This document shows, in pieces, positions 672 to 61,885 of a DNA stretch of 64,000 bases (position 1 is the first letter of the stretch; each line of letters begins with the position of its first letter). Location of the stretch: IMG/VR virus record IMGVR_UViG_3300045988_176028. The stretch is one strand, 5' to 3'. The position numbers and the translations under genes were made by a program. This DNA is from a virus. The notes under the pieces are model-generated. The model ran no database searches and was not told the DNA's origin. It saw only the letters and a list, made by a program, of their open reading frames with translations.

Positions 672-690
672 TAAACTGGATTTGTCCACA
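672..690 (+). promoter_or_regulatory. conserved promoter/leader motif copy (TAAACT-N6-GTCCACA)
   Basis: TAAACTGGATTTGTCCACA lies 19 nt upstream of ATG 709. It matches the window-wide motif TATAsT-GGnnnn-GTyCACA, but the -10 is weak. Confidence 0.45.
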
Positions 691-708
691 TAAGCAGAAA
701 GAAAAACG

Positions 709-861
709 ATGGCATCATTCATCATTGGACTTTTAGTCGGAGTGTTCATCGGCATGACTGTCATGAGCATGTGCGTAATTTCGAAGCAATCCGACAACAA
801 GCGTATCATCGACACCCACGCCGACAGTACAGAGGATTCCATTCCCATGGGGAAGGATTAA
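709..861 (+). CDS. small single-pass membrane protein (50 aa)
   Basis: ATG 709 to TAA 861, below the ORF-track cutoff. Sequence MASFIIGLLVGVFIGMTVMSMCV is a hydrophobic helix. The stop lies 2 nt before the next start. Confidence 0.4.
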   Translation: MASFIIGLLVGVFIGMTVMSMCVISKQSDNKRIIDTHADSTEDSIPMGKD

Positions 862-863
862 GC

Positions 864-1802
864 ATGTCCTGCTTGCGGAAAAACATCGGACAAGGCATCC
901 GACTGGTCATCCCCAGCATCCTCGTATTGTCGCTTCTGACCGTCGGCACGCCCGCATCCGCGAATCCGGCCACAGGAAGCATCCCCGTCGGACAGTCAGC
1001 CACACAAGTGTTGGACACGCTCACCGTCGGAGTGAAATCCAATGCGTCTTCCGACCGCAAGTCCCACCAGTGGAACAAGGTCGTTGGCAAAACCGGCAAT
1101 TACACGACCCGCGATTTGGTGTTGGAACGCGACATGGATAACGTGACCTACACGAGTCGAGGCAACGTGAACACCGGCATCCTATTGGAACCATACACGG
1201 GCAAGACCATCCACTTCCAACGCGGCACGTCGAACAAGACCGAGGGTGGAAGCGCGTCCAACCGTGACGGCGGCATCCAAATCGACCATGTGGTCGCCTA
1301 TGCGGAAGCGTATCGTTCCGGCTTGGACAAGCTCGACTTCGCCCAGCGAGACGCCTACTACAACGACCCCGACGTACTGCTCGCATCCCAAGCGGAAGCC
1401 AACAATGTGAAAAAGGACGGCACCATAGCCGAATGGGAACCTTCCAACCAAACGTTCCAATGCGATTACGCGAGCCTGCAAATCGGCATCAAAGCCAAAT
1501 ATGGGCTGATGGTAGACCAGAAGGAACATGATAAGCTGGCGCAAGTGTTGGCTTCCTGTCCGGCTGAAACCATTATTTCGACCAGTCAAGTGAAACAACG
1601 GTTAACCAGTGGGACATCAGAGGGGAACAATACAGGCACCGCTAACAATAATACGACCGGTGGCAACAGTCAGAACAGCCAATATAACGGTTCCACCAAC
1701 AGTAAGAACAATTCGCATACAACGAACAAACACCACACCACCACAACTAAGAAGAACTGGGTCAAAAACCTATTCAACGGACTCCTAAAACAATTCTTCT
1801 AG
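864..1802 (+). CDS. secreted DUF1524/HNH (His-Me finger) nuclease-like protein with N/T-rich tail
   Basis: In-frame ATG 864 of ORF 771..1802 gives signal peptide MSCLRKNIGQGIRLVIPSILVLSLLTVGTPASA. The core GGIQIDHVVAYAEAYRSG...EANNVKKDG resembles the DUF1524 nuclease domain. Confidence 0.6.
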   Translation: MSCLRKNIGQGIRLVIPSILVLSLLTVGTPASANPATGSIPVGQSATQVLDTLTVGVKSNASSDRKSHQWNKVVGKTGNYTTRDLVLERDMDNVTYTSRGNVNTGILLEPYTGKTIHFQRGTSNKTEGGSASNRDGGIQIDHVVAYAEAYRSGLDKLDFAQRDAYYNDPDVLLASQAEANNVKKDGTIAEWEPSNQTFQCDYASLQIGIKAKYGLMVDQKEHDKLAQVLASCPAETIISTSQVKQRLTSGTSEGNNTGTANNNTTGGNSQNSQYNGSTNSKNNSHTTNKHHTTTTKKNWVKNLFNGLLKQFF

Positions 1803-1818
1803 AACAGCCGTAACACAA

Positions 1819-1854
1819 GTAGTCCCGCCATTCACTTTCGGATGGTGGGACTAC
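1819..1854. terminator. hairpin between convergent genes
   Basis: GTAGTCCCGCCAT-N10-ATGGTGGGACTAC forms a 13 bp stem with one G-U. There is no clear U-tract. Confidence 0.35.
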
Positions 1855-1969
1855 TCATATATCAACTATGTTCTTCGTCCCATTTGTCCAAGGTTTCCAA
1901 CAGGTTAGGCAAGCCGAAATAGTCGTATGATTGCCCGTATTGTTTCCCACCTTTGGTCTCATATATAAT

Positions 1970-2005
1970 GTTGACTTCCTCACGGGGTTGAAATCCCGTG
2001 ATTCC
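1970..2005 (-). ncRNA. 3' terminal hairpin of predicted omega-RNA (reRNA) of TnpB copy 1
   Basis: Minus strand reads GGAATC-ACGGG-ATTTCAA-CCCCGT-GAGGAAGTCAAC, about 75 nt downstream of the tnpB stop. The same architecture recurs at 8846, 40841 and 55686. The 5' limit of the RNA is unknown. Confidence 0.45.
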
Positions 2006-2080
2006 TGTTGCCGGTTGGACGTGTCTTTCTTAATGTTTTTAATGGAAGAGATTCCGACCGGTATTGCAGGGGTTTGAGTT

Positions 2081-3499
2081 TCATCGACGTTGCTCCCCAC
2101 TGGTTTTCACCAGTGTGGAAGCTTGTTGTCTCCACTCTTCGGCATCGTCCATGCCGTTCGTTCCTAACGCGCGGTCGAGAATGTTCTTGGACGCGTTCAC
2201 GTCGGCGTTCGTCTCATGCCCGCAATTGTGGCAGTGGAACACCGCTTGGCTTTCACGGTTGTTCTTGCCGCAGTATCCGCAGACGTTGCAAATGCGTGAC
2301 GTGTCATAGGCGGGTACCTGAACGAGTCGGGTTCCCGCAAGCTTGGTTTTGTATTCGAGACAATGCAGGATGCCAGTCCAACGGTTGGCGAGGACGCTAC
2401 GGTTCAAACCGCTTTTCCTCTTCCGCCCGTTGTGCAGATAATGTCCCGGATTGTCGGGGTCTGGTTTCGGCCGGACGCTTCGGCTCATGGCCTTCACGTT
2501 CAACCGTTCCATGGCGATGAAATCGTATTCCCGGACGAGCGTGGTGGTCGTCTTGGCTATCCAATCGTCCTTGCGATTGTCTATCCGACGTTGGATGCGC
2601 CGCATGGCTTGGAGGGTGCGCTTGCGGCTTTTGGACGTGAATTTGGCGTTCCTGCCGCCACGCTTCTCGTTCGTCCTGTCCTGTCGGGCAAGCTTGCGTT
2701 GCAGACGCTTATACTCGTCCATCTCTTTGACGGACGGTTGGGGAATGTCGAGGAAAATGTTATCGGAGGTGGCGAGGGTATGCACGCAACCCCTATCCAA
2801 GCCGACCATCATGCCCGTATCGGTTCGGCTGATGGGGAGTGGACTATTGGTGAACACGAGTGTCCTGTTAGTCCAGTTCACCGCCACACTCGTATATTCA
2901 CGAACGGGTTGACTCACCCGCACATGAATGGCGATACGCCAACGAGCCTCGTTCTCACCCTCACGACGATACTGTCTCGGCACACTGCCAGTGATGACGA
3001 CCACACCGGTACGCTTGCCCGTCCGACGATACAAGGCGTTACCGGTCTTCGACTGGTTACGCCAGCACACGAAATACTGAGGAGCCTTATGGCGGGAACG
3101 GAACCCCGGAACCCGACCACCATTGGTCTTCTTCCGTTTCAATCCGGCGAACCAACCCGTGTTCTCGACACGTTCACATGAGGAGAGGATAGGCGAGGGA
3201 ATGCACGCCAGCCAAAGACAATCCAATCGCGCCTGACTGTCCTTGACGGCGGGCTTCACATCCGCGCCACCCAAAGGCACATCCACCCAAATACGCTCAC
3301 GGGTTTCAACATCCTCCACAAGCCTACGCTGGGGACGATGCGCCCGATGCTGGTTGTACCGGCTTCTCCACCCGTCGCACAGCCAGTCCATGATACGTTC
3401 CGGATTACGAGTCCACATACGATTCCCGTAAGAGTCCAAGCCGAGGAACACGCTGCACCCCGTATGCCGGACTTTCAGGATTCGTACTTTCTGACTCAT
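2081..3499 (-). CDS. tnpB: TnpB-like RNA-guided nuclease (IS605 OrfB family) with atypical N-terminus
   Basis: 472 aa. RuvC-like residues in GLDRG, AMERL and NADVNASKN. Zinc finger CNVCGYCG...CHNCGH. Paralogue of 7363..8820. Confidence 0.85.
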   Translation of the reverse strand: MSQKVRILKVRHTGCSVFLGLDSYGNRMWTRNPERIMDWLCDGWRSRYNQHRAHRPQRRLVEDVETRERIWVDVPLGGADVKPAVKDSQARLDCLWLACIPSPILSSCERVENTGWFAGLKRKKTNGGRVPGFRSRHKAPQYFVCWRNQSKTGNALYRRTGKRTGVVVITGSVPRQYRREGENEARWRIAIHVRVSQPVREYTSVAVNWTNRTLVFTNSPLPISRTDTGMMVGLDRGCVHTLATSDNIFLDIPQPSVKEMDEYKRLQRKLARQDRTNEKRGGRNAKFTSKSRKRTLQAMRRIQRRIDNRKDDWIAKTTTTLVREYDFIAMERLNVKAMSRSVRPKPDPDNPGHYLHNGRKRKSGLNRSVLANRWTGILHCLEYKTKLAGTRLVQVPAYDTSRICNVCGYCGKNNRESQAVFHCHNCGHETNADVNASKNILDRALGTNGMDDAEEWRQQASTLVKTSGEQRR

Positions 3500-4059: not shown

Positions 4060-4965
4060 TCAGAACGGGTTGCCGTCCGGCTTGCCGCTGGTCTTGGTCG
4101 GCTGAGTCGGGGACTCCAGCATCGGAACCCCGCCAATAGCGCGTTGCTTCGATTCCAACGACTTCCGGCACGGATACACCTTCAGCCCCTCATCGACGGC
4201 CTCTACATGCAGTTCCGGCCAATTCTGCCGAACCATTTCCAACGCTTTCTTGAAACGTTCCTTGAATCTGCGGAGTGGAGTGTTCGACGCGTCGAACTGT
4301 ATTTGCAATCCGTTCCAAGGTATGAGAACCGGTTTAGAGATGTAATATGTTCTGCGGGCGAGCCACTGGTAGATGTCCAACGCTCTGGATGATTTCCCGA
4401 GATTCATCACTATCTCTCGGTTTAAAGGAACGGGATTCTCGTTGAGGATTCCCCACATAAGTTCGGAGAATCGAATATACGAACCTTCCTTGTATTCGTC
4501 GGAATTTCTGTCGAAGCAGATGTGAGTGCGGTCGGCCACCAGAACATTGATGGCATCATGGACAGTTCTGCCCTGTTCGTCCTTGAACCAATTGGTCACT
4601 TGAAAGACAGTGCTCCCCAGATTCTCCAACATGCGGGTCACCTGCTCCCGTTGTCCATTGGCCGCGATTCCCGTGTTCTTGCAGAACGAATTAAATGTTT
4701 CGTCCAAATGGATTGTCCTGTTTTCGAAATCAACCATCGGGGACACCTCTTTTATGAGGGTTTGGGCATACAGAAGGAATAGACGGGGGATTTTTCCGTA
4801 AGCCCACTGCCCTTTCCTCGGGGTCGTCGTTATGGACACGATTCCGTTGCTCCGGTTCAGATAAGGTACATCAGGCTCCTCCACTGGAAGCAGGGAGACC
4901 ACTGATGAGAGGGTGGCCGCATAGGTTATTGTCTTCTTGCTGGGGTTGATGATATCCTTGTTCAT
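4060..4965 (-). CDS. repA: plasmid replication initiator, RepA_C (PF04796)-like
   Basis: 301 aa. WAYGKIPRLFLLYAQTLI matches the family hallmark (Y)G.(Y/I)PRLLL.W. Later motif ALDIYQWLARRTYY. Iterons lie directly upstream of the start. Confidence 0.7.
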   Translation of the reverse strand: MNKDIINPSKKTITYAATLSSVVSLLPVEEPDVPYLNRSNGIVSITTTPRKGQWAYGKIPRLFLLYAQTLIKEVSPMVDFENRTIHLDETFNSFCKNTGIAANGQREQVTRMLENLGSTVFQVTNWFKDEQGRTVHDAINVLVADRTHICFDRNSDEYKEGSYIRFSELMWGILNENPVPLNREIVMNLGKSSRALDIYQWLARRTYYISKPVLIPWNGLQIQFDASNTPLRRFKERFKKALEMVRQNWPELHVEAVDEGLKVYPCRKSLESKQRAIGGVPMLESPTQPTKTSGKPDGNPF

Positions 4966-5103
4966 GTTATCGGGATTCCTTTACTGTTGACTGATACTAA
5001 CCTCATCTCGGTACATACGGGATGAGGTTTTTATTTTTATCCTAATGGGTTTTTGGAATATTTTTTTATAAATCAGATTTTTCTGTTCACATTCTCAGTC
5101 AAG

Positions 5104-5166
5104 AGTCTTACATTCTCGGGCAGAAGTCTTACATTCTCAGGCAGAAGTCTTACATTCTCAGGCACT
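5104..5166. repeat. three tandem 21-bp iterons (candidate oriV-1)
   Basis: AGTCTTACATTCTCrGGCAGA repeated three times at 5104, 5125 and 5146, plus a half-site GTTCACATTCTCAG at 5087. An AT-rich stretch (5030-5085) with the DnaA-box-like TTATCCTAA precedes them. Confidence 0.75.
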
Positions 5167-5370
5167 TGGATGCTCTAATCCCTTGTGGGAGTAGGTCTAA
5201 GAGCACTGGTAATAGTATACAATAGATACAATAGTATACATAAGTATTTGTGGTACCGAATTTCTAAATGCTCTAAAAAACGAAAAATCGTTTGATTCAA
5301 AAAACATGGAATGATTTTTTACGATTTTTCTCCGACGCGTCTCAATGCTTTCGAAACCAGATACTTCGTA

Positions 5371-5392
5371 TGCTATAGTGGAATAGTTTACA
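5371..5392 (+). promoter_or_regulatory. conserved promoter/leader motif copy
   Basis: TGCTATAGT-GGAATA-GTTTACA, with an extended -10 followed by the conserved downstream box. Confidence 0.6.
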
Positions 5393-5511
5393 CAAGAAAA
5401 AGAGCTTTTCGCCAAACCATAAAAAACGGTTTCGCTCAAAGTCCTCACCCCAAAAAACCAGCTAAACTGGATATGTCCGCAACGAACCAAAACTGTCAAA
5501 GGAACGAAAGC

Positions 5512-6699
5512 ATGGAAAACGGCTCCCCGAACAGGCTGCCCGACTGGACTGAAATCATCGACGGGAAACCCCCAAAACCCGACAATGGTCCCAACCATGT
5601 AGGCAGACACAGCAAAGGAAGCCACGCCCGACACGGAAGCCAACCAGCCAACACAACGTCCACTGGCGAACATGTCCTCCAATGCTCCATCGGAATCATA
5701 TTCACCGTCGTCATAATCCTCATCGCCCAAATCGGTTGGATGTTCTTCGGACATGACTTGGATTCCATCCACACTCAGGTCGCAAACTCGAAAAGGGTCA
5801 GCCTGAACCAGAACATCGACTTGGATACGACCCGCATAGCCAAACCACAGTCGGGCGAAGTGCCGGTAGATGGCACGCCCACCCACATGCAGGTAATCGG
5901 ATGGATGTACATTCCTAAAATCGAATCCGGTTGGAAGCGTGCAATCCAACAGGGAACCGACCAAATCGTGTTGGACAATCAGGGCATAGGCCATTACGAG
6001 CAGACCGTCATGCCCGGTGCCGTAGGCAACAGCGCCTATGCCGGGCATCGCACCGGCGGCGACTTGGGTTACATCGACCGGTTGCAGACGGGTGACGCCA
6101 TCGTCATCCAAACTGCCGAACACTGGTACGTGTACAAGATGACCGAAGGTTGGGTCACTACTCCGACCGACGTGAGCGTGTTGAACAATGACGGCGCGAA
6201 CCCGGACTCCCGCGAATTGACGTTGACGACCTGCCATCCTATGAGCGTATGGGCAGACCAGAGCATCAAACACAGGTATATCGTCCGAGCGCAATTCTCC
6301 TATTGGGCGAACGTTTCCGACGGTATTCCGGCTGAGTTGAGCACCGCCAACGGGAACGTCGTCCAGAAGACCGCATACAAGTGGCAGAAGACCGTCCGAA
6401 CCGTCAGCGCCTACGCTCCCGCGAGCATGATGTTCGCCGTGATTCTGCTTGTCGCGTGGATGGTCATGAACGGACTGTGCTGGCTGTTGTGGCGTGGGGA
6501 GCGGGAACGCAAGCCGGTGTCTTGGAACGTGCTCGTATTGTCTTGGCGTCTGCAACAGGGCGTCCTGCCGTTGCGCCTGTTGAACATGCTGTTGTTCTGG
6601 GGTGGTTTGGTTCTGCTGTTCTGGTGGTCTGTCAGCCCGCATTTCGACAGTTGGTTCCCGTTCCTGCAATCGGTGGGATTGCCGAACGTCACGTTCTGA
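5512..6699 (+). CDS. class E-type sortase (transpeptidase)
   Basis: AAAGGA RBS precedes ATG 5512 inside ORF 5311..6699. There is an N-terminal TM helix. Catalytic order is H (YAGHRTGG), C (LTLTTCHP), R (HRYIVRAQF). C-terminal TM helices are present. Confidence 0.75.
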   Translation: MENGSPNRLPDWTEIIDGKPPKPDNGPNHVGRHSKGSHARHGSQPANTTSTGEHVLQCSIGIIFTVVIILIAQIGWMFFGHDLDSIHTQVANSKRVSLNQNIDLDTTRIAKPQSGEVPVDGTPTHMQVIGWMYIPKIESGWKRAIQQGTDQIVLDNQGIGHYEQTVMPGAVGNSAYAGHRTGGDLGYIDRLQTGDAIVIQTAEHWYVYKMTEGWVTTPTDVSVLNNDGANPDSRELTLTTCHPMSVWADQSIKHRYIVRAQFSYWANVSDGIPAELSTANGNVVQKTAYKWQKTVRTVSAYAPASMMFAVILLVAWMVMNGLCWLLWRGERERKPVSWNVLVLSWRLQQGVLPLRLLNMLLFWGGLVLLFWWSVSPHFDSWFPFLQSVGLPNVTF

Positions 6700-6746: not shown

Positions 6747-7256
6747 ATGCGGCAAACATATCTGACCAGCGACAATCCGACCGTGGTGAACCGACTGCGC
6801 AAGGACTGCCGTGAATACGCGCGTCAACGCGAACTGGAGGAATGGTTCGAAAACATCCACCATGTCCGTCTGGCGTGGAAGGAGGACGCGGATGGCAAGC
6901 GAACCGTCGAAGGAGTTGAAGCCGTCATGTCCAAGGAGACCCTGACCATCCAAGGCAAAGGTGATTTGAAAGGCTACTGGCTCATGCCCATGAACGGCAT
7001 ATACAAGCCATGCAAGAACAATGTTGAAGTATGGAGGATGCTCCGCCAATTCGAATGGCGTCCCGACCCTCTGCCGGGCATCGTCAGCTCATACACGTAT
7101 ACGCCATACGTGGACATGTTTATCGAAGACGACAAAGCATATCTTTCCATGCCGGTGGAAAGCTGGGATGACTCTTTGTGGCATAAGAGCACGAAGGGGA
7201 CATTCCGTAAGGCCGAGGAACGTTTCAACGACGGCGCTTCGGGAGATGACCGTTGA
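6747..7256 (+). CDS. hypothetical protein (169 aa)
   Basis: AGGAGG RBS 7 nt upstream of the ATG, with protein-like composition. Confidence 0.6.
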   Translation: MRQTYLTSDNPTVVNRLRKDCREYARQRELEEWFENIHHVRLAWKEDADGKRTVEGVEAVMSKETLTIQGKGDLKGYWLMPMNGIYKPCKNNVEVWRMLRQFEWRPDPLPGIVSSYTYTPYVDMFIEDDKAYLSMPVESWDDSLWHKSTKGTFRKAEERFNDGASGDDR

Positions 7257-7331: not shown

Positions 7332-8882
7332 TAATCACTGTTTCCGTGGTAAGGTTTTCAGTATGAGCCAGAAGGTACGAATCATCAAAGTCAGGCATGC
7401 GGGCGCATCCGTGTACCTTGGCGACGATTCATGCCGCAACCACTGCTGGACGCGCAATCCCGAACGCATCATGGACTGGCTGTGCGACGGGTGGAGAAGC
7501 CGTTTCAACCAACATCGGGAGCATAGGACAATCCGCCGCTACATGGAGGACATGGAATCCCATGAACGCATGTGGGTGGACGTCCCGTTGGGCGGCGCGA
7601 CCGTCGGGGAACCTTTCAAGGACAGCGAGGCTCGAATCCGGTGTTCTTGGCTCGCATGCATCCCCTCCGCTATTCTCGCCAGTCCCATGCGCGTGGAGAA
7701 TTCGGAATGGTATGCCGCGTTGAAGCGCAAGAAAATCAATGGCGGTCGTGTCCCGGGATTCAAGTCCCGCAAACGCAGCCCCCAGTATTTCGTATGCTGG
7801 CGCAACCAGAACAAGACCGGCAACGCCATCTACCATCAGGTGTCACGCAAGCGCGGCGTGGTCGTCATCACCGGAACCGTGAAAAAGGAATTCCGCAAGC
7901 CGGACGAAACGGGATGCCGTTGGACGCTCTCCATCCACGTGCGCGTCAGCCAACCCATCAGGGATTATACGAGTGTGGCGGTGAATTGGACGGAACGTAC
8001 TCTGGCGTTCACCAACGAACCGTCGCCCATCCGACGGAATACCACCGGCAAGCAGACCGGTATCGACCGTGGCTGCGTCCACACGTTGGCCTTGTCGAAT
8101 GGAACCATGCTAGACATGCCGCAACCGTCCGAACGGGAGAGAAAAGAGTATCTGCGATTGCAACGCAAACTCTCCCGACAGGACAGAACCAACGAGAAGC
8201 GTGGCGGCAAAACCGCGAAATTCCAGTCGAAACGGCGTATGCTCACGTTGAAGCGTATGAACTCGTTACGTCGCCGTATCAACAATCGTAAGGACGATTG
8301 GGTGGCGAAAACCACGACACAGCTTGTCGAAGACTACGACCTTATAGCCTTGGAAGCGTTGAAGACCCGGCAGATGACGCGTAGGCCAAAGCCGAAGCAG
8401 GACCCCAACCATCAGGGGTGCTACCTGCATAATAGTGCAACATCCAAAGCCGGATTGAACCGTAGCATCCTCAACAACCGTTGGACGGATATTCAGAACA
8501 AACTCGAATACAAGACCCGACTCGCCGGAACCCAGCTCATACTGGTTGACCCGGCCTACACGTCCCAAACCTGCAACCGTTGCGGCCATGTCGCATTGGA
8601 GAACCGTGAGAGTCAAGCGGTCTTCCAATGCGTTAACTGCGGGAACAAGGATAATGCGGACGTGAACGCGGCTAAGAACATTCTCAACCGCGCGATACAT
8701 ACAACCGGCATGGACGATGCCGAGGGCGTGGAGGAACACGCATCCTATGGAACCCATGTTCCACAGGAGAGTTCCGGTGAAACGCCAACCCCTGCTACAC
8801 GTATGGGAAGACTTCTCTAATGGGAAGCATGTCTCATATGCGACAGGAATCCCCCGGCTTCAGCCGTGGGGAGGAATTCAAA
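7332..8882 (+). mobile_element. tnpB-only IS200/IS605-family element, copy 2
   Basis: TTGAT at 7327..7331 is followed by TAATCA, the same left-end junction as copy 1. The right-end hairpin ends near 8882. Confidence 0.6.
7363..8820 (+). CDS. tnpB: TnpB-like RNA-guided nuclease, paralogue of 2081..3499
   Basis: ATG 7363 (MSQKVRIIKVRH) aligns with the copy 1 N-terminus. Motifs GIDRG, ALEAL, CNRCGH...CVNCGN and NADVNAAKN. Confidence 0.85.
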   Translation: MSQKVRIIKVRHAGASVYLGDDSCRNHCWTRNPERIMDWLCDGWRSRFNQHREHRTIRRYMEDMESHERMWVDVPLGGATVGEPFKDSEARIRCSWLACIPSAILASPMRVENSEWYAALKRKKINGGRVPGFKSRKRSPQYFVCWRNQNKTGNAIYHQVSRKRGVVVITGTVKKEFRKPDETGCRWTLSIHVRVSQPIRDYTSVAVNWTERTLAFTNEPSPIRRNTTGKQTGIDRGCVHTLALSNGTMLDMPQPSERERKEYLRLQRKLSRQDRTNEKRGGKTAKFQSKRRMLTLKRMNSLRRRINNRKDDWVAKTTTQLVEDYDLIALEALKTRQMTRRPKPKQDPNHQGCYLHNSATSKAGLNRSILNNRWTDIQNKLEYKTRLAGTQLILVDPAYTSQTCNRCGHVALENRESQAVFQCVNCGNKDNADVNAAKNILNRAIHTTGMDDAEGVEEHASYGTHVPQESSGETPTPATRMGRLL

Positions 8883-9794: not shown

Positions 9795-10169
9795 ATGGGC
9801 GCACCATGCGTCATCGCCATGCGAAACGGCGAAGACTTGTACCGTTGGATATTCAGCCCTTACGACGGGAATATCCAATCCGCGGGACGTATGCTTTTCG
9901 ACCATTACGACACTAGAGAGAAAGTAGAACGATTGCTGGATAACGGCGACATCGACCTGCTTGCCCCCGCCGTCGAGGAATGCGAGCCGTTAAGCGAACG
10001 AAGCCCCTACTATTCCGGCGGGCAAGGTTCCACGGACGAACTTCCGATGTTCGGTGAACTGCACACGTACATCTGGCGCGACGGATACGGGTGGGGTTGC
10101 AAACCTATGCTGTGGGAGGCTGTAATGCCCTTGAATCTGTTGCTGGGTGTGGAGAACCCTTGGGTCTGA
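9795..10169 (+). CDS. hypothetical protein (124 aa)
   Basis: GGAGGAAGGAAG RBS. Bounded by motif promoters on both sides. Confidence 0.6.
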   Translation: MGAPCVIAMRNGEDLYRWIFSPYDGNIQSAGRMLFDHYDTREKVERLLDNGDIDLLAPAVEECEPLSERSPYYSGGQGSTDELPMFGELHTYIWRDGYGWGCKPMLWEAVMPLNLLLGVENPWV

Positions 10170-10180: not shown

Positions 10181-10202
10181 TGCTATAGTGGGCATGTTCA
10201 CA
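10181..10202 (+). promoter_or_regulatory. conserved promoter/leader motif copy
   Basis: TGCTATAGT-GGGCAT-GTTCACA, 21 nt upstream of ATG 10223. Confidence 0.65.
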
Positions 10203-10222
10203 TATTTTGAAAGGCCAAAAAC

Positions 10223-11200
10223 ATGCTCAATTTCGAATCCGTCAACTGTGACGGCAAGCACATCAATTGGGAGTTCAACACGCCCAACGAAGTACATCGA
10301 TTGTTCTGGTCGGATACCTGTCCACTTCCATCCAATGACGACCCAATCGTTCATGCCGAACTAGACGGCAAACCACTGCCGCAATGCAAAGCGTTCCTCG
10401 ACCTTTTACACATGCTTGGATTGGACGAGGAACAATATCCGCCCGAAAAAGGGAAAACCCATAAGCTTATCGCCATCGACTTGGACAACACTCTCGTAGA
10501 CTATACGACAGCGTTCAAGGATTGCATCAGCCAATTACAGAAGAAACCGTTCAACGCTCCCGAACCAACCGACTACGGTTTCGCCTGTGAAGGCTGGTTC
10601 GAAACCCATGCGGAATTCCGTGAATGGCATCATTGGTCGGTGAACGCGGGACTCTATTTACGTGAACACATGTATCCACATGCTATGGAAGCGTTGGTGA
10701 AGCTAATCGGCATGTCGGAAGACAATCGTCTCCTATTCGTCACCTCCCGTGACGACGACCGTGATGATACACGCCGGTGGATGATAGCCATGAATTTCGA
10801 CACAAGCCAGAACCATAACCTGTGTCCCCGCCGTAATCCGGACGACCTGCGACGCACGGAAGGTGACGCCGTATTCGCCTCGGACATCAGGCGAATGGCC
10901 GAAAAAGACTGGTATGAGAAAGACCCCATTACCAGCATCGGATACACTTACACGCCGTCACATCGAGATATCCCTTACTGTCATCTCAAGCAGAAGAACC
11001 TGCTCAAAGCCGACCTGTACATTGAGGACAATCCCATAATGTTGGACACTCTCATACGAGAAGGACTCCCCGTCTTGGCGAAACGCCACGGCTACAACGT
11101 GGAACAGTGCGAACGATTGGAGCATGAGGGCGGTGGAGCTGTGTTCGACTCGTGGAGCGAAGTGCCCGAACTGGTTGACCGGATTTTGGGAAAGGAATGA
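10223..11200 (+). CDS. HAD-superfamily hydrolase, 5'(3')-deoxyribonucleotidase-like, with ~80 aa N-terminal extension
   Basis: HAD motif I IAIDLDNTLVD (DxDxT), motif II FVTSRDD, and a distal K...DLYIEDN. Confidence 0.55.
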   Translation: MLNFESVNCDGKHINWEFNTPNEVHRLFWSDTCPLPSNDDPIVHAELDGKPLPQCKAFLDLLHMLGLDEEQYPPEKGKTHKLIAIDLDNTLVDYTTAFKDCISQLQKKPFNAPEPTDYGFACEGWFETHAEFREWHHWSVNAGLYLREHMYPHAMEALVKLIGMSEDNRLLFVTSRDDDRDDTRRWMIAMNFDTSQNHNLCPRRNPDDLRRTEGDAVFASDIRRMAEKDWYEKDPITSIGYTYTPSHRDIPYCHLKQKNLLKADLYIEDNPIMLDTLIREGLPVLAKRHGYNVEQCERLEHEGGGAVFDSWSEVPELVDRILGKE

Positions 11201-12265: not shown

Positions 12266-12266
12266 T

Positions 12267-51428: not shown

Positions 51429-51485
51429 GATGGGGCGAAACCTATGGGGAATCGCCACTGTAAAGGAAGAACCATTCATGGTTCG

Positions 51486-51686: not shown

Positions 51687-51757
51687 TATGTCACGCTGGA
51701 ATCGAACCAACATCTACGGTTTTGGAGACCGTGGCTCTACCGTTGAGCTAGTGACAT
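51687..51757 (-). tRNA. tRNA-Trp(CCA)
   Basis: 71 nt. A1-U72, anticodon loop CTCCAAA, T-loop TTCGATT. Confidence 0.75.
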
Positions 51758-52022
51758 ATGGGGTGGGCTACCAACGTAGACGCCACCCTCTCGTTGTCCT
51801 GTAGTTAGCGTCCAAGTCCAACTCGATAGACGCGGCATGGCGGGTTGGATTTTACCGCCAACGGCAAGGTCGTGGGCTGCTAAGTACCCCGTTTCACCGT
51901 TCTTCCCCTTCGGTCATCAACCACCTGATTAAGGCAGGGAAACTCTTATCCTCCACAAGACCATGTAGGATTATTCGAGCAATGCCATCAGTTTCACGGA
52001 CAGCTACCTCCATGAAACCTAG

Positions 52023-52096
52023 CACCCAAGGTTGGAGTCGAACCAACGACGTCCGGTTTAGGAAACCGGCGCTCTATTCCGCTGAGCTACAAGGGT
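52023..52096 (-). tRNA. tRNA-Arg(CCU)-like with two U-U mismatches in the acceptor stem
   Basis: 74 nt. TAGCTCAGCGGAATAGAGC D-arm, anticodon loop TTCCTAA, T-arm GTTGG-TTCGACT-CCAAC. Acceptor ACCCTTG/CTTGGGT. Confidence 0.6.
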
Positions 52097-52316
52097 GTAT
52101 GTCTCCGTTCCGCGAGGACACCCGCAACGCGTCTTCCGGATTGGAGTCATTCACATCAGCCGTTCGCTACTTACCATTGTTGCGGGGCAATGGCTTTCTC
52201 TAATGGGATGATGGTGTTTTACGCGCATTCCACGCGGACGCTTTTAATTGCCCATCCAATACGACGAGCCACAGGATTACACTCCCGATTTCCCGCAGTT
52301 ACGCCAACTGCGGTCG

Positions 52317-52389
52317 TGCCCCCCGTGGGATTCGAACCCACAACCCACGACTTAAAAGGACGCTGCTCTAACCATTGAGCTAGAGGGGC
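52317..52389 (-). tRNA. tRNA-Lys(UUU)
   Basis: 73 nt. Anticodon loop CTTTTAA, T-arm GTGGG-TTCGAAT-CCCAC, acceptor GCCCCTC/GGGGGGC. Confidence 0.75.
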
Positions 52390-52459
52390 GGAACAGGAGG
52401 TGAAGGAACGAAAACCCACCTCCCGCTTGGATTAGTTAAAGGAGAACCATCAAGGTTCG

Positions 52460-52543
52460 TGCTCCGAGAGAGATTTGAACTCTCACACCTTTTCAGGTAA
52501 AGCATTTTGGGTGCTTCGCGTCTACCGATTTCGCCATCAGAGC
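52460..52543 (-). tRNA. tRNA-Leu(CAA)-like, atypical C33
   Basis: 84 nt with a long variable arm. Anticodon loop CCCAAAA, T-loop TTCAAAT. It has the same 3' flank, CGAACC, as the other Leu tRNA. Confidence 0.65.
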
Positions 52544-52808
52544 GTCGCGCGATTGAGGGACGTGCGTTTTCGTTCTTACAGAACGACCCATTGATTTTCG
52601 TACCACCCTCCCCGCTTACAAATCAACAAAAGTCAGAGATTGGAGGAAACTGATTTTTTGTTTACAAAGTTTTTCCTTCAAGTTTGGAGAGTCTGTTTTG
52701 CAGGAGTCGCTTAGCACGCACATCAGTTTCCTCTATTTAGAGTTTGGATAAAAGCCCGTAAGGCAATTATCCAAACATTGTTTTGAATACGGTATGCATT
52801 CAAAATCG

Positions 52809-53177
52809 TGGAGCCGGAGGGAATCGAACCCTCGTCCTTGAAAACGTTGATGATGTTTTCTACATGTTTAGCCATCTCATTTATATATGTTGAAAGTTCC
52901 AGTCGAAGAGGCACCCCGGAACAGTTTTGCAACTCAGTCATGAAACGATGAACAGTTGCCGTTCACCGAGTTTTTGCTGTCCTTTCTTTTTCAGAATCGC
53001 CTTACAGCAAATCAGTGACCCTGTTCTTCCTTCACCGTGTTTCAGGCGGCGAGCTGGAAGTTACGCGAAGAATTCGTCTTGGCGTTTATTGTTTGACATG
53101 GATTGATGACGGTTGTCCACGTCAGCCTCCGACATGCTTGCATTATCTTGATTTTCAAGTCGAAACCTGTCGGCCCC
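52809..53177 (-). ncRNA. ssrA: tmRNA (SsrA), tag AKTNSSRNFQLAA
   Basis: 5' end GGGGCCGACAGGTTTCGAC. 3' end GAGGG-TTCGATT-CCCTC-CGGCTCC-A. The acceptor stem has a G3-U70 pair. Internal frame GCC AAG ACG AAT TCT TCG CGT AAC TTC CAG CTC GCC GCC TGA lies at 53083..53042. Confidence 0.85.
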
Positions 53178-53228
53178 AAAATGCCGTCTTCCTTCCGGTT
53201 TTCCGTCCGAGCTTCCCATAGGTGTGGT

Positions 53229-53318
53229 TCAGAACCAATAGAATGGTTGGCTGGGATTTCCAGCCGGAAGGTTGACAGCGGTTTTGCCTGTCATGGTTTT
53301 GTCTTCAAGCGTTTTCAT
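53229..53318 (-). CDS. possible 29-aa micro-ORF upstream of the tmRNA
   Basis: AGGAGAAGC RBS and ATG 53318 give MKTLEDKTMTGKTAVNLPAGNPSQPFYWF. No other support. Confidence 0.25.
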   Translation of the reverse strand: MKTLEDKTMTGKTAVNLPAGNPSQPFYWF

Positions 53319-53624
53319 GCTTCTCCTAGAACTTCCAATTGAACTGGTTTTCTGGTTTTGGATAGGCGTGATAGTTCCTGAAGATTCGACCATGATGGGC
53401 AAGTCTTCATATCGAACATGATTTGATGGGCTTTAAGTCCTATCGAACCATGTTTCCTTATCTCTATTCATTTTTCAAACGGGCGGCAACATTCAGGGAG
53501 TGTTCCTTACTGGGTAAGGTCTTTACCCCGGTTGCCTTGGTGACTGTTCCAGTAGCGGGCTGGATATGAGAAGCGGTCTTCTCACAGTCTGTTCGCGCGT
53601 GATGTTTTTATTGAACCTCGTTTG

Positions 53625-53646
53625 TGTGAACACTGCCAGTATAGCA
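53625..53646 (-). promoter_or_regulatory. conserved promoter/leader motif copy facing the tmRNA/tRNA block
   Basis: Minus strand reads TGCTATACT-GGCAGT-GTTCACA. A degenerate second copy lies at 53541..53557. Confidence 0.6.
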
Positions 53647-53773: not shown

Positions 53774-54046
53774 ATGCAGTCCAAGCAAATACGAGAAGCA
53801 ACCACAGTCGCATATATAGAAGACCAGCTCAAGTCGGAAGACCCCACTCTCATACAGTCGGCCACGGGGAATCTAGCCAGACTGTATGGAATGACCACGC
53901 TCTCCCAACTGACCGGTTTGGCGAGGCCATCCCTCTACCGAAGCCTATGCGGTCAAGGAAACCCATCCTTCCAAACCATGTGCAGGGTATTGGACGCCAT
54001 GGGGTACACAGTCACGGTGAAGCGTAAGGAGACGGAACATGAGTGA
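53774..54046 (+). CDS. HigA-family HTH 'addiction module antidote' protein (TIGR02684-like), no adjacent toxin
   Basis: ARLYGMTTLSQLTGLARPSLYRSLCGQGNPSFQTMCRVLDAMGYTV closely follows the family signature (...GLSRESLYKALSGEGNPSFDT...). It overlaps the repA start by 8 nt. Confidence 0.7.
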   Translation: MQSKQIREATTVAYIEDQLKSEDPTLIQSATGNLARLYGMTTLSQLTGLARPSLYRSLCGQGNPSFQTMCRVLDAMGYTVTVKRKETEHE

Positions 54047-55094
54047 CAGGCAAGTGGAACAGAACGCTCTAGACATTGACATACCCGGCATGGAGTTGGA
54101 TGTTCGACGGGTCAACCTGTTGGACGATATAGAAGCCCGCGAGCCGAACAGTATGGAAATATGGTATGGGCATTCCATTCTCACCGCCACACTGTTTCCA
54201 CCAGCCCAACCGTCCGATGATGTGGATTTCGTCAGCAAGTCGAACGGACGGTTGGAATACATGCTTGAAGCTGGCGTGACGGGTGATGGGGATGATAGGA
54301 AACGCCGGTTCCCGTTCGGCAAATATCCGAGACTGTTGATGGCTTGGATGGCTAAGCAGATTCGTGCGGCGAAAGGCCATAAGACGAGGAATGTTGACCC
54401 GGAGACGAAGACCATCACCATTCCAAGCATCTACCAGTTGTGTGAGGAAATGGGATTGCCGCATGGCGGGCGTACCGCGAAGAGCGTGCAGGAACAGTTG
54501 GAACTGTTGTTGGCTTGCCGTATCAGTATTCGCGCGTCCGGCACGGGCAAGGGGTTGAATGTGAGGGATACGGCCTATCTGCCTATCGTTCAGGCCGTGC
54601 GCATTATCAATGATGAGAAGAATGTGGGCTATTCCGGTGCCACGTTCCGTCTGACCGATGAAGTGTATGAACGGTTGAGTCGTGAGTCGGCTCCGTTCGA
54701 TACGAGAGTGTCCACTTACCTTTTGAAAGGCAGGTCGGTCATGCCTTACGACATTTACATTTGGCTGACTGGCAGTATGAAGAATCTTCGCCGTGACCTT
54801 CCGGTGAGTTGGGATTGGCTGTATGAACGGTTCGGAGACCAGATTGCGGTCAAGAAGTCTTTTCGGCGCATGTTCCGTCAATCGTTGGAGAAGGTCAAGA
54901 AGGTGTATCCGGGGTTGAATGTTGAGTGTCCAACGTATGAGGATTACATTATTCTGCATCCGAGTCCCACGTCGGTTCCTACCCGTGCTGTCCGTGAGGT
55001 TGAGGTGGGTGCTAATGGGGATGTGTTCGAGGTGGCTTTGCATTCGTTGCAATCGGTTCAACGGAAAGGTGTACGAAAGGCCACGTCAGATTGA
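54039..55094 (+). CDS. repA: plasmid replication initiator, RepA_C (PF04796)-like, second copy
   Basis: 351 aa. FPFGKYPRLLMAWMAKQI hallmark and later PYDIYIWLTGSM. Iterons lie immediately downstream. Confidence 0.7.
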   Translation: MSDRQVEQNALDIDIPGMELDVRRVNLLDDIEAREPNSMEIWYGHSILTATLFPPAQPSDDVDFVSKSNGRLEYMLEAGVTGDGDDRKRRFPFGKYPRLLMAWMAKQIRAAKGHKTRNVDPETKTITIPSIYQLCEEMGLPHGGRTAKSVQEQLELLLACRISIRASGTGKGLNVRDTAYLPIVQAVRIINDEKNVGYSGATFRLTDEVYERLSRESAPFDTRVSTYLLKGRSVMPYDIYIWLTGSMKNLRRDLPVSWDWLYERFGDQIAVKKSFRRMFRQSLEKVKKVYPGLNVECPTYEDYIILHPSPTSVPTRAVREVEVGANGDVFEVALHSLQSVQRKGVRKATSD

Positions 55095-59578: not shown

Positions 59579-59789
59579 AGATTTCCTTCCATTGAATCAG
59601 ACCGTCGATAATTTTCGCGGCGGTTCGATTGTCCAAATATTTCTTATTCAAGTCTTCCTTATAGCGGACTACGGGAGGGCAGTTTTCGAGGTTTTTCACG
59701 TTATTAAGGTCGGACTGGTCGGTGAGTTTGAGAATTAGTCGAATCTGAGCTTCCGTGGCCTTGCGTTTCTGTCCCGCGTAAATCATCAT
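59571..59789 (-). CDS. hypothetical protein (72 aa)
   Basis: Operon context. Confidence 0.45.
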   Translation of the reverse strand: MMIYAGQKRKATEAQIRLILKLTDQSDLNNVKNLENCPPVVRYKEDLNKKYLDNRTAAKIIDGLIQWKEIYG

Positions 59790-60271
59790 TGCTCTCCCCG
59801 GCCAGAGTGGTGGACGTTTGTCGTTCGGAAGTGTTCCGATAACAGGTCTTTCGTGTTTTTTCTTAATTGGGCTGACGCGAGTTCCTGCACTTGAGAGACC
59901 GCTATCACATAGTCGGTCAGCTGGCTGGCGAATTCCTTATCATGATGGCGTCGAGCCAGTTCGCAGACAGCGTCGATTGCCGAAGTGTGGAAAATGTCCG
60001 ATACTGGTTCGATGTAGTCACCGTCTGCCATGAGGGCACGGTATTCGAATCGGTTTCCGCAGTTGATTTCCCGAACCATGCCGTAGTCCTTACCGTCAAC
60101 CACGACTTGATAGTCTTTAGTTTTGCTGGAGGATTGCGTGTAGCAGGGGAAGTTGATGGCAGACAGTGTTGCCGAATACTGGTCTTGTACCATCGCCAGT
60201 TCTTCGTCCACCCAGCCGAGTGAACGTAGTTGGATGGGGTTTGCCGGTTTTTTGGGGTTTTGTTTTTCCAA
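59786..60271 (-). CDS. hypothetical protein (161 aa)
   Basis: TTG start with GGGAGGAAAGC RBS. First gene after the promoter at 60297. Confidence 0.55.
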   Translation of the reverse strand: MEKQNPKKPANPIQLRSLGWVDEELAMVQDQYSATLSAINFPCYTQSSSKTKDYQVVVDGKDYGMVREINCGNRFEYRALMADGDYIEPVSDIFHTSAIDAVCELARRHHDKEFASQLTDYVIAVSQVQELASAQLRKNTKDLLSEHFRTTNVHHSGRGEQ

Positions 60272-60296
60272 GCTTTCCTCCCAAAGACTGCTTATG

Positions 60297-60318
60297 TGTG
60301 GACTTATCCAGTATAGCA
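60297..60318 (-). promoter_or_regulatory. conserved promoter/leader motif copy
   Basis: Minus strand reads TGCTATACT-GGATAA-GTCCACA. Confidence 0.65.
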
Positions 60319-60346: not shown

Positions 60347-60610
60347 TCAGGCGAGAATGTTCAACGACTTGAAAAGCGTGTCCGCCAGATGATTGCCTCC
60401 ACCGTTGAGGCAAACCACCACATATTGGGGCAGGTTCACGAAATTCAGGCTTTCCACACGTAGACCATCCTCGGTCTTTTCCATACGGTATTCCAATTCG
60501 CCGTCGATGGTGGTTCCGCTTACGGTGATGGCGATAGCCCTTTTACCGGCCAGTTCCTCGATAGGCTTGTCCATCCAATCGGAAATGGTCTCGTGTACGT
60601 CAGTATGCAT
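60347..60610 (-). CDS. hypothetical protein (87 aa)
   Basis: GGAGG RBS precedes ATG 60610 within ORF 60347..60670. Confidence 0.5.
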   Translation of the reverse strand: MHTDVHETISDWMDKPIEELAGKRAIAITVSGTTIDGELEYRMEKTEDGLRVESLNFVNLPQYVVVCLNGGGNHLADTLFKSLNILA

Positions 60611-60626
60611 ATAATCCTCCAAGACT

Positions 60627-61184
60627 CTACTTATTACTCGCGTCCGCGAACAGTATGGCACTGCCTTCATTATGAAGCTTGTCCGCTTGGCGTTTGATAT
60701 CGCTCGTCGTATACCAGAAAGTGAATTCGGTCGGGTCGGTTCCGGTAATCAATTCCTCAACCATGTTGATTCCCCAAGATGGAATGGTGTCGTATACGCG
60801 GTACAAGTCAAGTTTCTTCACATCCTTGTCCACGATGCCGCCGACGTGGATGCCGTGGGGCGCATCCCCCAACGGATGATAGTCAGCGAGCACGCTGATG
60901 GCGTGTGCGACTTCGTCCCGAATCTCCTCAAGGGTTTCCAATTTCAGTGGACATTCCTCGCTGAACAGTGGAAGGTAATGTTCTTGGGCGAGCCAGAATG
61001 GGAACTCCTCCAAATCGTACTTGTCCATGTCGTGACGACTCAACGGCTTCTCATAGTCGATGATTGCGGTGAGCTTGCCGGTCGGGTCAGCCAGTGGACG
61101 CTCGTGAATGGAGATGAGTTTTTCGTCGGGATACTGATGGTCGTATAGCGACTTGGTGTAGGCGTATGAGTATTTTTTGGTCAA
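60627..61184 (-). CDS. hypothetical protein (185 aa)
   Basis: TTG start with GAAGGA RBS. First gene after the promoter at 61209. Confidence 0.55.
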   Translation of the reverse strand: MTKKYSYAYTKSLYDHQYPDEKLISIHERPLADPTGKLTAIIDYEKPLSRHDMDKYDLEEFPFWLAQEHYLPLFSEECPLKLETLEEIRDEVAHAISVLADYHPLGDAPHGIHVGGIVDKDVKKLDLYRVYDTIPSWGINMVEELITGTDPTEFTFWYTTSDIKRQADKLHNEGSAILFADASNK

Positions 61185-61208
61185 CGATTGTCCTTCACTC
61201 TTGTATGA

Positions 61209-61230
61209 TGTGAATGTTTCCAGTATAGCA
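61209..61230 (-). promoter_or_regulatory. conserved promoter/leader motif copy (ATTCACA variant)
   Basis: Minus strand reads TGCTATACT-GGAAAC-ATTCACA. Confidence 0.6.
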
Positions 61231-61247
61231 GAGGGAACGGTGAAACG

Positions 61248-61529
61248 TCAGCGGTCAGTGACCTTGACTTTGTTATACGCAAGAATCGACTCGAACAGTC
61301 GGAGTGGATTGCGGGAGTCCAGCTTGTACTGATGGTGATTCCTCGCGGTTTCCGTTTCGAGGAATCGTCCGCTCTCGGACGGCTCTTCCACAATCATGGG
61401 AACCCAACGCCATTTCTCACGGCCTTTGCTGTTCTCCCAGACGATTTCCCCGTTTTCCAATACCCGCTTGTAGGCGGTCTTGTCGGGGAATGACGAGTCT
61501 ATTCGTGCGACTAGATTCAATCGGCTCAT
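61248..61529 (-). CDS. hypothetical protein (93 aa)
   Basis: ATGA overlap with the upstream zinc-ribbon ORF. Confidence 0.5.
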   Translation of the reverse strand: MSRLNLVARIDSSFPDKTAYKRVLENGEIVWENSKGREKWRWVPMIVEEPSESGRFLETETARNHHQYKLDSRNPLRLFESILAYNKVKVTDR

Positions 61530-61681
61530 GGTTTAATTCCTTCTTCTCTCAGTTCTTCATAGTCTTGCGGCGTGAGGAAAAGCCAAGCTCCACAGTAGGG
61601 ACACTTGACCCTATTGGCATCGACGGTGTTCTTGCAATACCAGCAGGTGACGTACCATCCGTTTACATATCGGTTTTGCAT
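61526..61681 (-). CDS. zinc-ribbon protein (51 aa)
   Basis: MQNRYVNGWYVTCWYCKNTVDANRVKCPYCGAW. Below the track cutoff. Confidence 0.4.
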   Translation of the reverse strand: MQNRYVNGWYVTCWYCKNTVDANRVKCPYCGAWLFLTPQDYEELREEGIKP

Positions 61682-61842
61682 TGTTGCTCCTTTTTCTTGA
61701 AATCAGAAGACAGTGGTCTTCTAATTTTCGCAAAGAAGTCGATGACTTCGATAAGATAGAGGAACATTTCAAGCAGGACAAAGAAAACGAATCCCAGTAC
61801 GTCAAAAGTCCAGTTTTTCAGTTTTTTGAATATGTTGGACAT
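61663..61842 (-). CDS. small membrane protein (59 aa)
   Basis: AAGGAGAGCA RBS precedes ATG 61842. The longer track ORF would include its own promoter. Confidence 0.4.
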   Translation of the reverse strand: MSNIFKKLKNWTFDVLGFVFFVLLEMFLYLIEVIDFFAKIRRPLSSDFKKKEQQCKTDM

Positions 61843-61866
61843 TGCTCTCCTTGTCTTAATAGATTG

Positions 61867-61885
61867 TGTGAACAACCCCAGTATA
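61867..61885 (-). promoter_or_regulatory. conserved promoter/leader motif copy
   Basis: Minus strand reads TATACT-GGGGTT-GTTCACA. Confidence 0.65.

Follow-up and report, generated by a model that had tools for sequence, protein, structure and literature searches.

The conjugative plasmid pMP7017 of Bifidobacterium breve carries a 34-bp motif, 5′-AWAYATGYTATACTGAATATGTCCACATAAAAWA-3′, that overlaps the -10 element of its highly expressed genes (PMC10832533; Microb Biotechnol 2024;17:e14405). Six highly expressed genes showed the motif first, another 13 sites were then added, and the resulting 19 copies were predicted to drive 56 genes, or 24% of the coding capacity (PMC10832533). It was read as a likely transcription-factor binding site and was reported to occur in homologues of pMP7017 but on no bifidobacterial chromosome, and its link to high transcription comes from RNA-seq of pMP7017 only (PMC10832533). 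Here we describe the motif of a 64,000-nt stretch of DNA filed as virus record IMGVR_UViG_3300045988_176028 in IMG/VR (the whole stretch is called the window hereafter), where a reading made from the sequence alone, without database searches (the sequence-only reading), had noticed a ~25-nt promoter and leader motif at the head of about 18 transcription units on both strands. By its consensus and geometry, the window motif is not new: it is the form that the plasmid-specific promoter motif of the 2024 paper takes in the window lineage. The range of this recently described plasmid-private motif is thereby extended to a second lineage of large gut-associated plasmids, an uncultured one, with Cas9, a transfer-messenger RNA (tmRNA) and a tRNA array.

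A search for TATANTGGNNNNGTYCACA with at most one mismatch returned 18 matches in the window, 7 on the plus strand and 11 on the minus strand, against an average of 0.02, and never more than 1, in 100 dinucleotide-preserving shuffles. The motif and its approximate count were thus borne out, and all positions listed in the sequence-only reading were recovered by the pattern search, the plus-strand ones having been counted from TGy, 3 nt before TATA. When the copies were aligned with their flanks, all 18 were oriented toward a downstream ribosome-binding site (RBS) and start codon or toward an RNA gene. The RBS in front of motif-headed genes was purine-rich, and the 5′ untranslated region (UTR) was approximately 25–125 nt long. 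A position weight matrix (PWM) built from the family recovered the same 18 copies and one weak tandem copy (Table 1). The -10 hexamer and GTYCACA were separated by 6 nt in 18/18 window copies, so the constant spacing that had been claimed holds, and it extends to the wider lineage, where 170 of approximately 173 unique copies have the same distance (5 nt in 0, 7 nt in 2).

The logo of 196 unique copies gave the extended consensus TTG-N14-T-r-TG-n-TATAcT-GG-AAtT-GTyCACA-cAAAa, and the window-lineage consensus was TGyTATAcTGGAAtTGTtCACAcAAA, with a length of approximately 27 bases. The logo shows a weak -35 (TTG at 0.70/0.66/0.43) with a 17-nt spacer, which is not required in some copies, an extended -10 with T at 0.68 and G at 0.78 at positions -3/-2, and a TATAcT hexamer in which T/A/T/A/T each reach at least 0.97 and C reaches 0.81. 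The discriminator begins with GG (0.95/0.92), followed by A-A-t-T, and GTyCACA is followed by cAAA and an A-rich tail. The fixation of hexamer position 5 as C or G is unusual. Conservation sets in abruptly from -5 relative to the hexamer and fades after approximately +12, while the -35/spacer region and the UTR are variable. By inspection, the consensus is free of dyad or direct-repeat symmetry. The description of the copies as promoters is supported by these features, namely a sigma-70-type extended -10 with a weak TTG -35 at 17 nt, together with the correct orientation and a 5′ UTR of approximately 25–125 nt, and standard promoter geometry would put the start of transcription on the G of GTyCACA or beside it.

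Among instances ascertained by TATASTGG, 155 of 169 unique ones carried GTYCACA (at most one mismatch) exactly 6 nt on, and copies chosen by TATASTGG alone contained 1.0–1.8 bits per position at +1 to +7 of the downstream block. This exceeds the sequence information that RNA polymerase is known to use at these positions. GTYCACA itself occurs 39 times in the window; 16 occurrences lie inside motif copies, and the other 23 equal the second-order Markov expectation of 23.0. As the blocks co-occur at a fixed 6 nt and the heptamer elsewhere is at chance level, the two blocks form one composite unit. Avoidance of a restriction/modification-type site was rejected as an explanation, because the heptamer outside promoters is exactly at expectation. 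CRP/FNR-type and LexA-type sites (TCACA half-site; GAAC-N-GTTC in two copies) were also rejected, since the consensus, on inspection, lacks either a second half-site or the correct spacing.

The motif is restricted to the plasmid family. The strict window-lineage form TATACTGGNNNNGTTCACACAA, with 18 specified bases and 4 matches in the window, had 6 isolated matches in the genomes of 185,579 species (one representative genome each), all in unrelated organisms and none in Bifidobacterium, against a chance expectation of approximately 17 in 596 Gb by our own calculation from the 18 specified bases. In IMG/VR, the same form had matches at more than 53 loci, each with at most six copies, in contigs 111–205 kb long, and many IMG/VR motif loci align to parts of the window at 80–99.9% identity. 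The pMP form of the motif, i.e. that of the pMP7017 lineage, matched 86 further IMG/VR loci, including contigs from isolate genomes. The genome matches at chance level, set against the multi-copy IMG/VR loci, indicate that the motif is element-specific, as the sequence-only reading had proposed, and not a generic promoter of the host.

The window encodes two RepA_C initiators, at 4060-4965 (-) and 54039-55094 (+), as does the pMP7017 replicon. The RepA at 54039-55094 is 56% identical to RepA of pMP7017 and 53% identical to those of B. longum megaplasmids, with the next matches at 31% or less, and the second RepA_C is 36% identical to its counterpart in the pMP7017 family. The second RepA, the DUF1524 nuclease, the surface protein and a few others are common to both lineages at 30–57% identity. 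In a search of 72,556 plasmid records with the first 25 kb of the window, nucleotide matches (~90% identity, to B. longum megaplasmids) were found only at the tnpB insertion sequence (IS) copies; for the window beyond the first 25 kb, the comparison was of proteins, with a single B. longum plasmid. The protein-level kinship of RepA, together with nucleotide matches at the IS copies alone, places the window in an uncultured sister lineage of the pMP7017 megaplasmid family rather than in the same plasmid. The three IS200/605-family tnpB genes, at 2081-3418 (-), 7363-8820 (+) and 40957-42126 (-), have 90–94% protein identity to the copies on B. longum megaplasmids and are the best clue to the host, which is probably Bifidobacterium because of this IS identity and of RepA. 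Assignment of the motif to a phage promoter class, or of the element to a phage, was rejected, as no match was obtained in 50,697 phage records and the relatives are conjugative plasmids; nor were phage structural domains found in the approximately 67 window proteins scanned with Pfam. Contigs of both lineages, that of the window and that of pMP7017, are listed as viral in IMG/VR, isolate-genome contigs among them, although pMP7017 is a conjugative plasmid.

A scan of the complete B. longum pMP7017-type plasmid NZ_CP143940.1 with the window-lineage PWM yielded 22 motif copies with the consensus TGTTATACTGAATatGTCCACATAaAA. Both lineages have the TGY extended -10 with TATACT, then a 6-nt discriminator whose first base is G, and GTYCACA where the start is predicted; an A-rich tail follows, and 20–60 nt further come the RBS and the start codon. 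In both, the copies are numerous, occur on both strands and are confined to the plasmid family. In comparison with the published 34-bp motif, the core TGYTATACTG-N5-GTYCACAYA-A is shared and four to five positions differ (GG/GA, AAtT/ATAT, T/C, C/T), while the upstream AWAYA part is weakly conserved in the window lineage (T 0.70 at -5). The pMP-lineage consensus, TGTTATACTGAATATGTCCACATAAAA, differs from that of the window lineage in a concerted manner. The base after TATACTG was A in 22/22 copies of the B. longum plasmid, G in 16/18 copies of the window, and G in 75–100% of the copies (mostly >85%, for instance 9/9 and 18/19) in sixteen other window-lineage contigs; the B. longum plasmid has GTCCACAT (C 20/22, T 22/22) where the window lineage has GTtCACAc; and the discriminator GAATAT is nearly invariant in the pMP lineage. 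Such concerted differences over approximately 20 promoters per element suggest that each lineage has its own reader.

Three orthologous units are headed by the motif in both lineages, although their flanks are unalignable: the unit of a DnaQ-like exonuclease (57–62% amino acid identity between lineages, with the same 34-nt UTR length), the unit of a 175/177-aa ORFan (35% identity) and the tmRNA unit. On the B. longum plasmid, the motif at 108502 is followed by the tmRNA (107533-107921) and then by 21 tRNAs, in the same order as in the window and divergent from repA, so that the arrangement 'tRNA array - tmRNA <- motif | -> repA' is common to the two. The sharp limits of conservation and the retention of the motif at orthologous promoters point to selection and not to recent copying. 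The motif heads a sortase gene and each lineage's own CRISPR-Cas module as well, and both the sortase and the resident CRISPR-Cas module are motif-headed in the regulon table of pMP7017 (PMC10832533); the pMP7017 family carries type I-E Cas, whereas the window element carries type II Cas9. We also considered whether the motif is a recombination junction, and 5 of 75 homology breakpoints lay within 60 bp of it against 2.5 +/- 1.5 at random, which is not significant.

The 18 units span up to approximately 46 of the 64 kb (~70%) of the window, which is an upper bound from the open reading frame (ORF) map, in which same-strand genes were followed from each copy to the next copy or to a strand switch; the corresponding share of pMP7017 is 24%. 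Motif density is likewise about twice as high: one copy every 3.6 kb in the window (18/64 kb) and one every 8.4 kb on the B. longum plasmid (22/184 kb). Motif-headed functions include defence/anti-restriction, nucleotide and RNA repair, pilus/sortase functions, CRISPR-Cas9 and the tmRNA-tRNA array, while the units without a motif include those of the two repA genes, of the large surface protein and of the IS elements, as well as the promoter of the trans-activating CRISPR RNA (tracrRNA). That last promoter had been described as having the -10 and GGG half only, and it was found as such (Table 1). The statement that most copies sit directly after a terminator was overstated: a convincing hairpin with a T-run, judged by scan and RNAfold inspection, was present upstream of approximately 7–8 of the 18 copies (12247, 31249, 32553, 35876, 37921, 53625, and perhaps 61867 and 5374), and a terminator scan of 27–46 kb gave no excess over shuffles (29 found vs 21 +/- 5).

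The explanation that we favour, at about an even chance of being right, is that the motif combines a sigma-A extended -10 promoter with a site, in fixed geometry to it, for a putative plasmid-encoded DNA-binding factor. A host sigma-A-type promoter with an optional TTG -35 at 17 nt, a TGn extended -10 and TATAcT would be joined with the 6-nt discriminator GGAAtT and the first ~12 transcribed bp, GTyCACAcAAAa, into one fixed unit of approximately 27 bp, of which the part past the -10 would be read as DNA by a putative protein encoded by the element, with one coordinated control over up to ~70% of the window as a consequence. Since the site spans -12 to +12 and overlaps the -10 and +1, the factor would probably be a repressor that tunes intrinsically strong promoters, as in the 'central control' circuits of plasmids. 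The two natural 'alleles' of the motif (GG..GTTCACAC vs GA..GTCCACAT) make the question of the reader experimentally tractable.

Several observations weigh against this explanation. No reader protein was found; a homologue of HigA-like antidotes (53774-54046) was the sole helix-turn-helix (HTH) protein to turn up in the window, and 536 kb of window-lineage DNA contained no homologue of the HTH/WhiB regulators annotated on the B. longum plasmid. The only conserved HTH found in both lineages belongs to a 121-aa HTH_Tnp_2 protein encoded upstream of dnaB (NZ_CP143940.1 61465-61830; near position 9266 of a window-lineage IMG/VR locus), with a weak E value of 4e-5 and 39% identity between lineages, and this protein is a weak candidate for the reader. 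Pfam searches with the first genes of motif units, with non-motif units and with lineage-conserved proteins mostly gave no matches. The lack of dyad or direct-repeat symmetry is unusual for repressor operators, and gene conversion between copies is another way in which the lineage-specific states could have come about. In the early promoters of phage T5, conserved sequence in the transcribed region can matter without a phage factor. Furthermore, since the motif of pMP7017 was found among highly expressed genes, repression would be partial at most. The start sites on pMP7017 are termed 'presumed' (PMC10832533).

Two other explanations lie at the level of the polymerase. In one, the main rival, which we consider rather unlikely though it deserves attention, the motif is an intrinsic 'super-promoter' cassette that needs no factor from the element: the extended -10, a G-start, AT-rich discriminator and the initial transcribed sequence would be jointly optimised for the host polymerase, acting on open-complex stability, start choice or promoter escape, with an A-rich unstructured leader, and the cassette would be reused wherever strong expression is needed. 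This would fit the near-consensus extended -10, the dispensability of the -35 in some copies, the largely unpaired leader with 49% A, the absence of a detected regulator and the reuse of the whole 5′ UTR down to the RBS in the pMP lineage, and T5/N25-type promoters provide a precedent. The occurrence of the motif among the most highly transcribed genes of pMP7017 agrees with it too (PMC10832533). A single optimum for the polymerase, however, would not predict that two lineages, apparently in one host genus, keep different homogeneous versions, and strongly expressed chromosomal genes do without the motif (our genome scan; PMC10832533). The bases at +1 to +7, which are nearly invariant, and the C or G fixed at position 5 of the hexamer also go beyond the known preferences of polymerase. 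The other explanation is an element-encoded factor associated with RNA polymerase (sigma-like, or a binder of the open complex or of the non-template strand) that would read the extended -10, discriminator and start region in the promoter complex, acting in activation or specificity rather than repression. For such a factor, which seems a good deal less probable, speak the strictly invariant spacing from the -10 to GTYCACA, the occurrence of the two blocks only together, an asymmetric site exactly where polymerase melts or holds DNA, and the C/G at the fifth hexamer position, for which the housekeeping sigma has no need; plasmid-carrying cells show high expression (PMC10832533). The promoters nevertheless appear to carry all that the housekeeping sigma needs (TGn, TATAcT, and TTG with a 17-nt spacer), neither a sigma factor nor a polymerase subunit appears in the complete annotation of the B. 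longum plasmid, and a crude tblastn search with an ECF sigma query, a weak test, gave nothing significant. If true, it would mean a private promoter class, i.e. an orthogonal transcription programme over most megaplasmid genes, with a co-evolved pair of factor and site in each lineage. A promoter for a single-subunit T7-like polymerase, which would be an asymmetric one of 20–23 bp lacking sigma-70 elements, was rejected, given the sigma-70-type -35, TGn and -10; a superficially similar T7-like promoter on the opposite strand (..CCAGTATAG) would transcribe away from all 18 downstream genes, and no polymerase domain was found in the Pfam-scanned window proteins or in the annotated B. longum plasmid.

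The sequence-only reading had left the choice among an element-specific regulator, a sigma factor and an RNA-level signal, and of these the element specificity stands and the RNA-level signal is weakened. In the latter case, a common 5′ end, GUUCACACAAA(A), would be bound by an RNA-binding protein or ribonuclease, of the plasmid or the host, that controls stability, processing or translation. All units would indeed have the same first ~12 nt if the start is the G, the constant spacing from the -10 would determine where each 5′ end lies, and the first 12 nt of the leader, which is A-rich (49% A), are predicted to be single-stranded, with an unpaired probability of 0.74. A shuffled leader gives the same 0.74, however, and conservation begins upstream of the predicted start, in the discriminator. 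The copy at 53620-53646 drives the tmRNA and nine tRNAs, and that at 44141-44167 points into the tracrRNA/cas9 unit; the tmRNA, the tRNAs and the tracrRNA have their 5′ leaders processed away. The motif at the head of a tmRNA-tRNA array places its action on transcription and excludes a purely translational role. No Rfam family was found at the motif copies, the complementary heptamer TGTGRAC was not found in the tmRNA, and the heptamer has no excess outside promoters. The conserved and predicted-untranscribed discriminator, the tmRNA unit, a leader no different from its shuffled counterpart and the lack of an Rfam family or tmRNA complement together point to the DNA or initiation level; a role at the RNA or translation level is accordingly less likely, and the common 5′ end as an RNA-level signal appears highly improbable. 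A structured RNA leader or an antisense partner was rejected on the same grounds, namely no structure beyond the shuffle, no Rfam family and no tmRNA complement.

Three further systems resemble the motif in part. The central control of the IncP-1 plasmid RK2 uses a KorA operator that overlaps the -10 and KorB operators, which are palindromes bound by dimers. Like these, the window motif is a private motif found at many promoters, on both strands, in constant position to the -10, which would coordinate many plasmid functions, and the promoters are strong; unlike them, the window consensus is without dyad symmetry, and repression in the window lineage is a proposal. A Kor-type system as such was rejected, as the consensus is non-palindromic (one copy has a palindrome, 44149-44160) and neither a conserved regulator nor a KorA/KorB homologue was seen. 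These absences lower the case that the motif is a Kor-type system, not the case that it works like one.

The stoperators of Cluster A mycobacteriophages, bound in L5 by gp71, are asymmetric 13-bp sites co-oriented with transcription; they are scattered inside genes as well as in the gaps between them and block elongation, and only one overlaps a promoter. They share with the window motif an asymmetric private site on an actinobacterial mobile element, in many copies co-oriented with transcription, whereas the downstream block of the window motif never exceeds chance alone and is always locked to the -10 at 6 nt. The strong early promoters of T5 and T7 have a conserved transcribed region, and T4-type PeSL elements are promoter-stem-loop cassettes. 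As in the window, these are promoters of a mobile element for the host polymerase that share sequence past the -10/-35, including transcribed bases, and terminator-promoter cassettes flank small gene modules. In the window, however, conservation is tied far more closely to particular bases, fewer than half of the copies follow a terminator, and homology breakpoints are not significantly concentrated at the motif.

The sequence-only reading had also remarked that the half-iteron of oriV-1 shares the heptamer. This is a chance match by the counts given above, and the heptamer at 5085 arises only at the first iteron unit, at its junction. The iterons by the first repA consist of 3.6 copies of the 21-nt ACATTCTCAGGCAGAAGTCTT (5089-5164), and three copies of AATAGTATAC lie at 5211-5240, a layout resembling the A1-A8 repeats reported upstream of repA of pMP7017. 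The iteron unit and the motif have only ACA in common. The published sites of pMP7017, RGYGTCARWATTCTA for RepA and the critical bases GGnCnAnnR for RepB (PMC8313286), are unlike the motif. RepA, or binding to the iterons, was therefore rejected as the reader of the motif, with the heptamer at chance level and both the published Rep sites and the window iteron different from it.

The individual copies and their units are listed in Table 1. For applied purposes, the motif is a candidate for a compact, strong and portable promoter in Bifidobacterium genetics, and it provides a sequence tag for the plasmid family in metagenomes.

Table 1. Motif copies and associated features of the window, with PWM scores and the units that follow.
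Feature	Position	Strand	PWM score	Unit and remarks
Motif copy TACTAAACTGGATTTGTCCACATAAGC	669-695	+	24.0	Predicted +1 at G684; heads 50-aa ORF and DUF1524/GmrSD_C nuclease gene (864-1802)
Motif copy TGCTATAGTGGAATAGTTTACACAAGA	5371-5397	+	30.9	Heads sortase gene (ORF 5311-6699, likely start 5513) and 6747-7256
Weak tandem copy AGCTAAACTGGATATGTCCGCAACGAA	5460-5486	+	11.7	89 nt past the 5371 copy, upstream of sortase start; new relative to the sequence-only reading
Motif copy TGTTATACTGAGATTGTTCACATAAAA	9745-9771	+	38.4	Heads 124-aa ORF (9795-10169)
Motif copy	10181-10207	+	24.0	Heads 10223-11200, Lar-like restriction-alleviation gene (11203-11700) and 11731-12150
Motif copy, good -35 TTGACT with 17-nt spacer	12244-12270	+	27.4	Heads 12267 to ~15691, including DUF5052 gene
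Motif copy	15665-15691	+	34.4	Heads ~8 kb operon of mostly ORFan genes (15722-23745)
Motif copy	31244-31270	-	39.9	Heads 96-aa ORF, RNA ligase/kinase (29191-30894), 28854-29159 and thymidylate synthase (27997-28839)
Motif copy	32548-32574	-	40.3	Heads DUF3846 gene (32119-32532), then metallophosphoesterase gene (31363-32058)
Motif copy	34518-34544	-	32.8	Heads 34163-34417 and 33011-34069
Motif copy	35871-35897	-	36.0	Right after terminator hairpin 35961-35923, the strongest in the scanned 27000-46000; heads 35259-35849 and 34697-35143
Motif copy, GTCTACA variant	37916-37942	-	32.8	Heads pentapeptide-repeat protein gene (36085-37842)
Motif copy	42642-42668	-	40.7	Heads 42157-42615, then IS605 tnpB (40957-42126) and 887-aa ORF (38054-40717)
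Motif copy, half of divergent pair	44067-44093	-	36.4	Heads 43433-44032 and 42686-43363
Motif copy, other half of divergent pair	44141-44167	+	22.8	Points into tracrRNA promoter and cas9-cas1-cas2 (44361-49012)
Motif copy, TTGACA -35	53620-53646	-	39.7	Heads non-coding unit: tmRNA (52808-53177) and 9 tRNA genes (50053-52543)
Motif copy	60292-60318	-	31.1	Heads 59786-60271 and minus-strand genes to ~56327
Motif copy, ATTCACA variant	61204-61230	-	27.3	Heads 60627-61184 and 60347-60610
Motif copy	61862-61888	-	34.0	Heads small ORF from ~61825 and 61248-61529
tracrRNA promoter TGTTATAGTGGGAACCACGG	44229-44248	+		Extended -10 and GGG, without GTYCACA; comparison promoter, not a motif member
CRISPR-Cas9 parts		+		tracrRNA ~44244-44331; cas9 44361-47687 (1108 aa); cas1 47778-48668; cas2 48695-49012; ~9 repeats of 36 nt 49052-49588

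In addition to the genes of Table 1, the window encodes an SdrD-like surface protein. The type II CRISPR-Cas9 locus is complete on this plasmid-like element (44229-49588, +). Within the motif copy that points into it, a perfect 12-bp palindrome, TGGACATGTCCA, spans the discriminator and the predicted start and is present in no other copy; it might be an additional, locus-specific operator. The tag encoded by the tmRNA is AKTNSSRNFQLAA. A stretch of approximately 450 nt (53177-53631, -) separates the tmRNA from the predicted start of its unit; it is without an ORF of at least 80 aa and without an Rfam match, and it may contain a long leader or an undescribed RNA.

Beyond +12, the 5′ UTR is divergent in the window lineage, whereas the pMP lineage reuses the whole UTR to the RBS, in the form of a promoter-UTR-RBS cassette of approximately 60 bp (GTCCACATAGAAATGAAAGAGGAAA..ATG), e.g. 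at NZ_CP143940.1 70829, 96614, 108502 and 168010. One of the 21 tRNAs of that plasmid was called by ARAGORN as a suppressor-like 'tRNA-Pyl' with a CTA anticodon. Two of its motif promoters, at 152653/152672, stand back to back with their -10 boxes 24 bp apart and without a usable -35, so the extended -10 apparently works without a -35.

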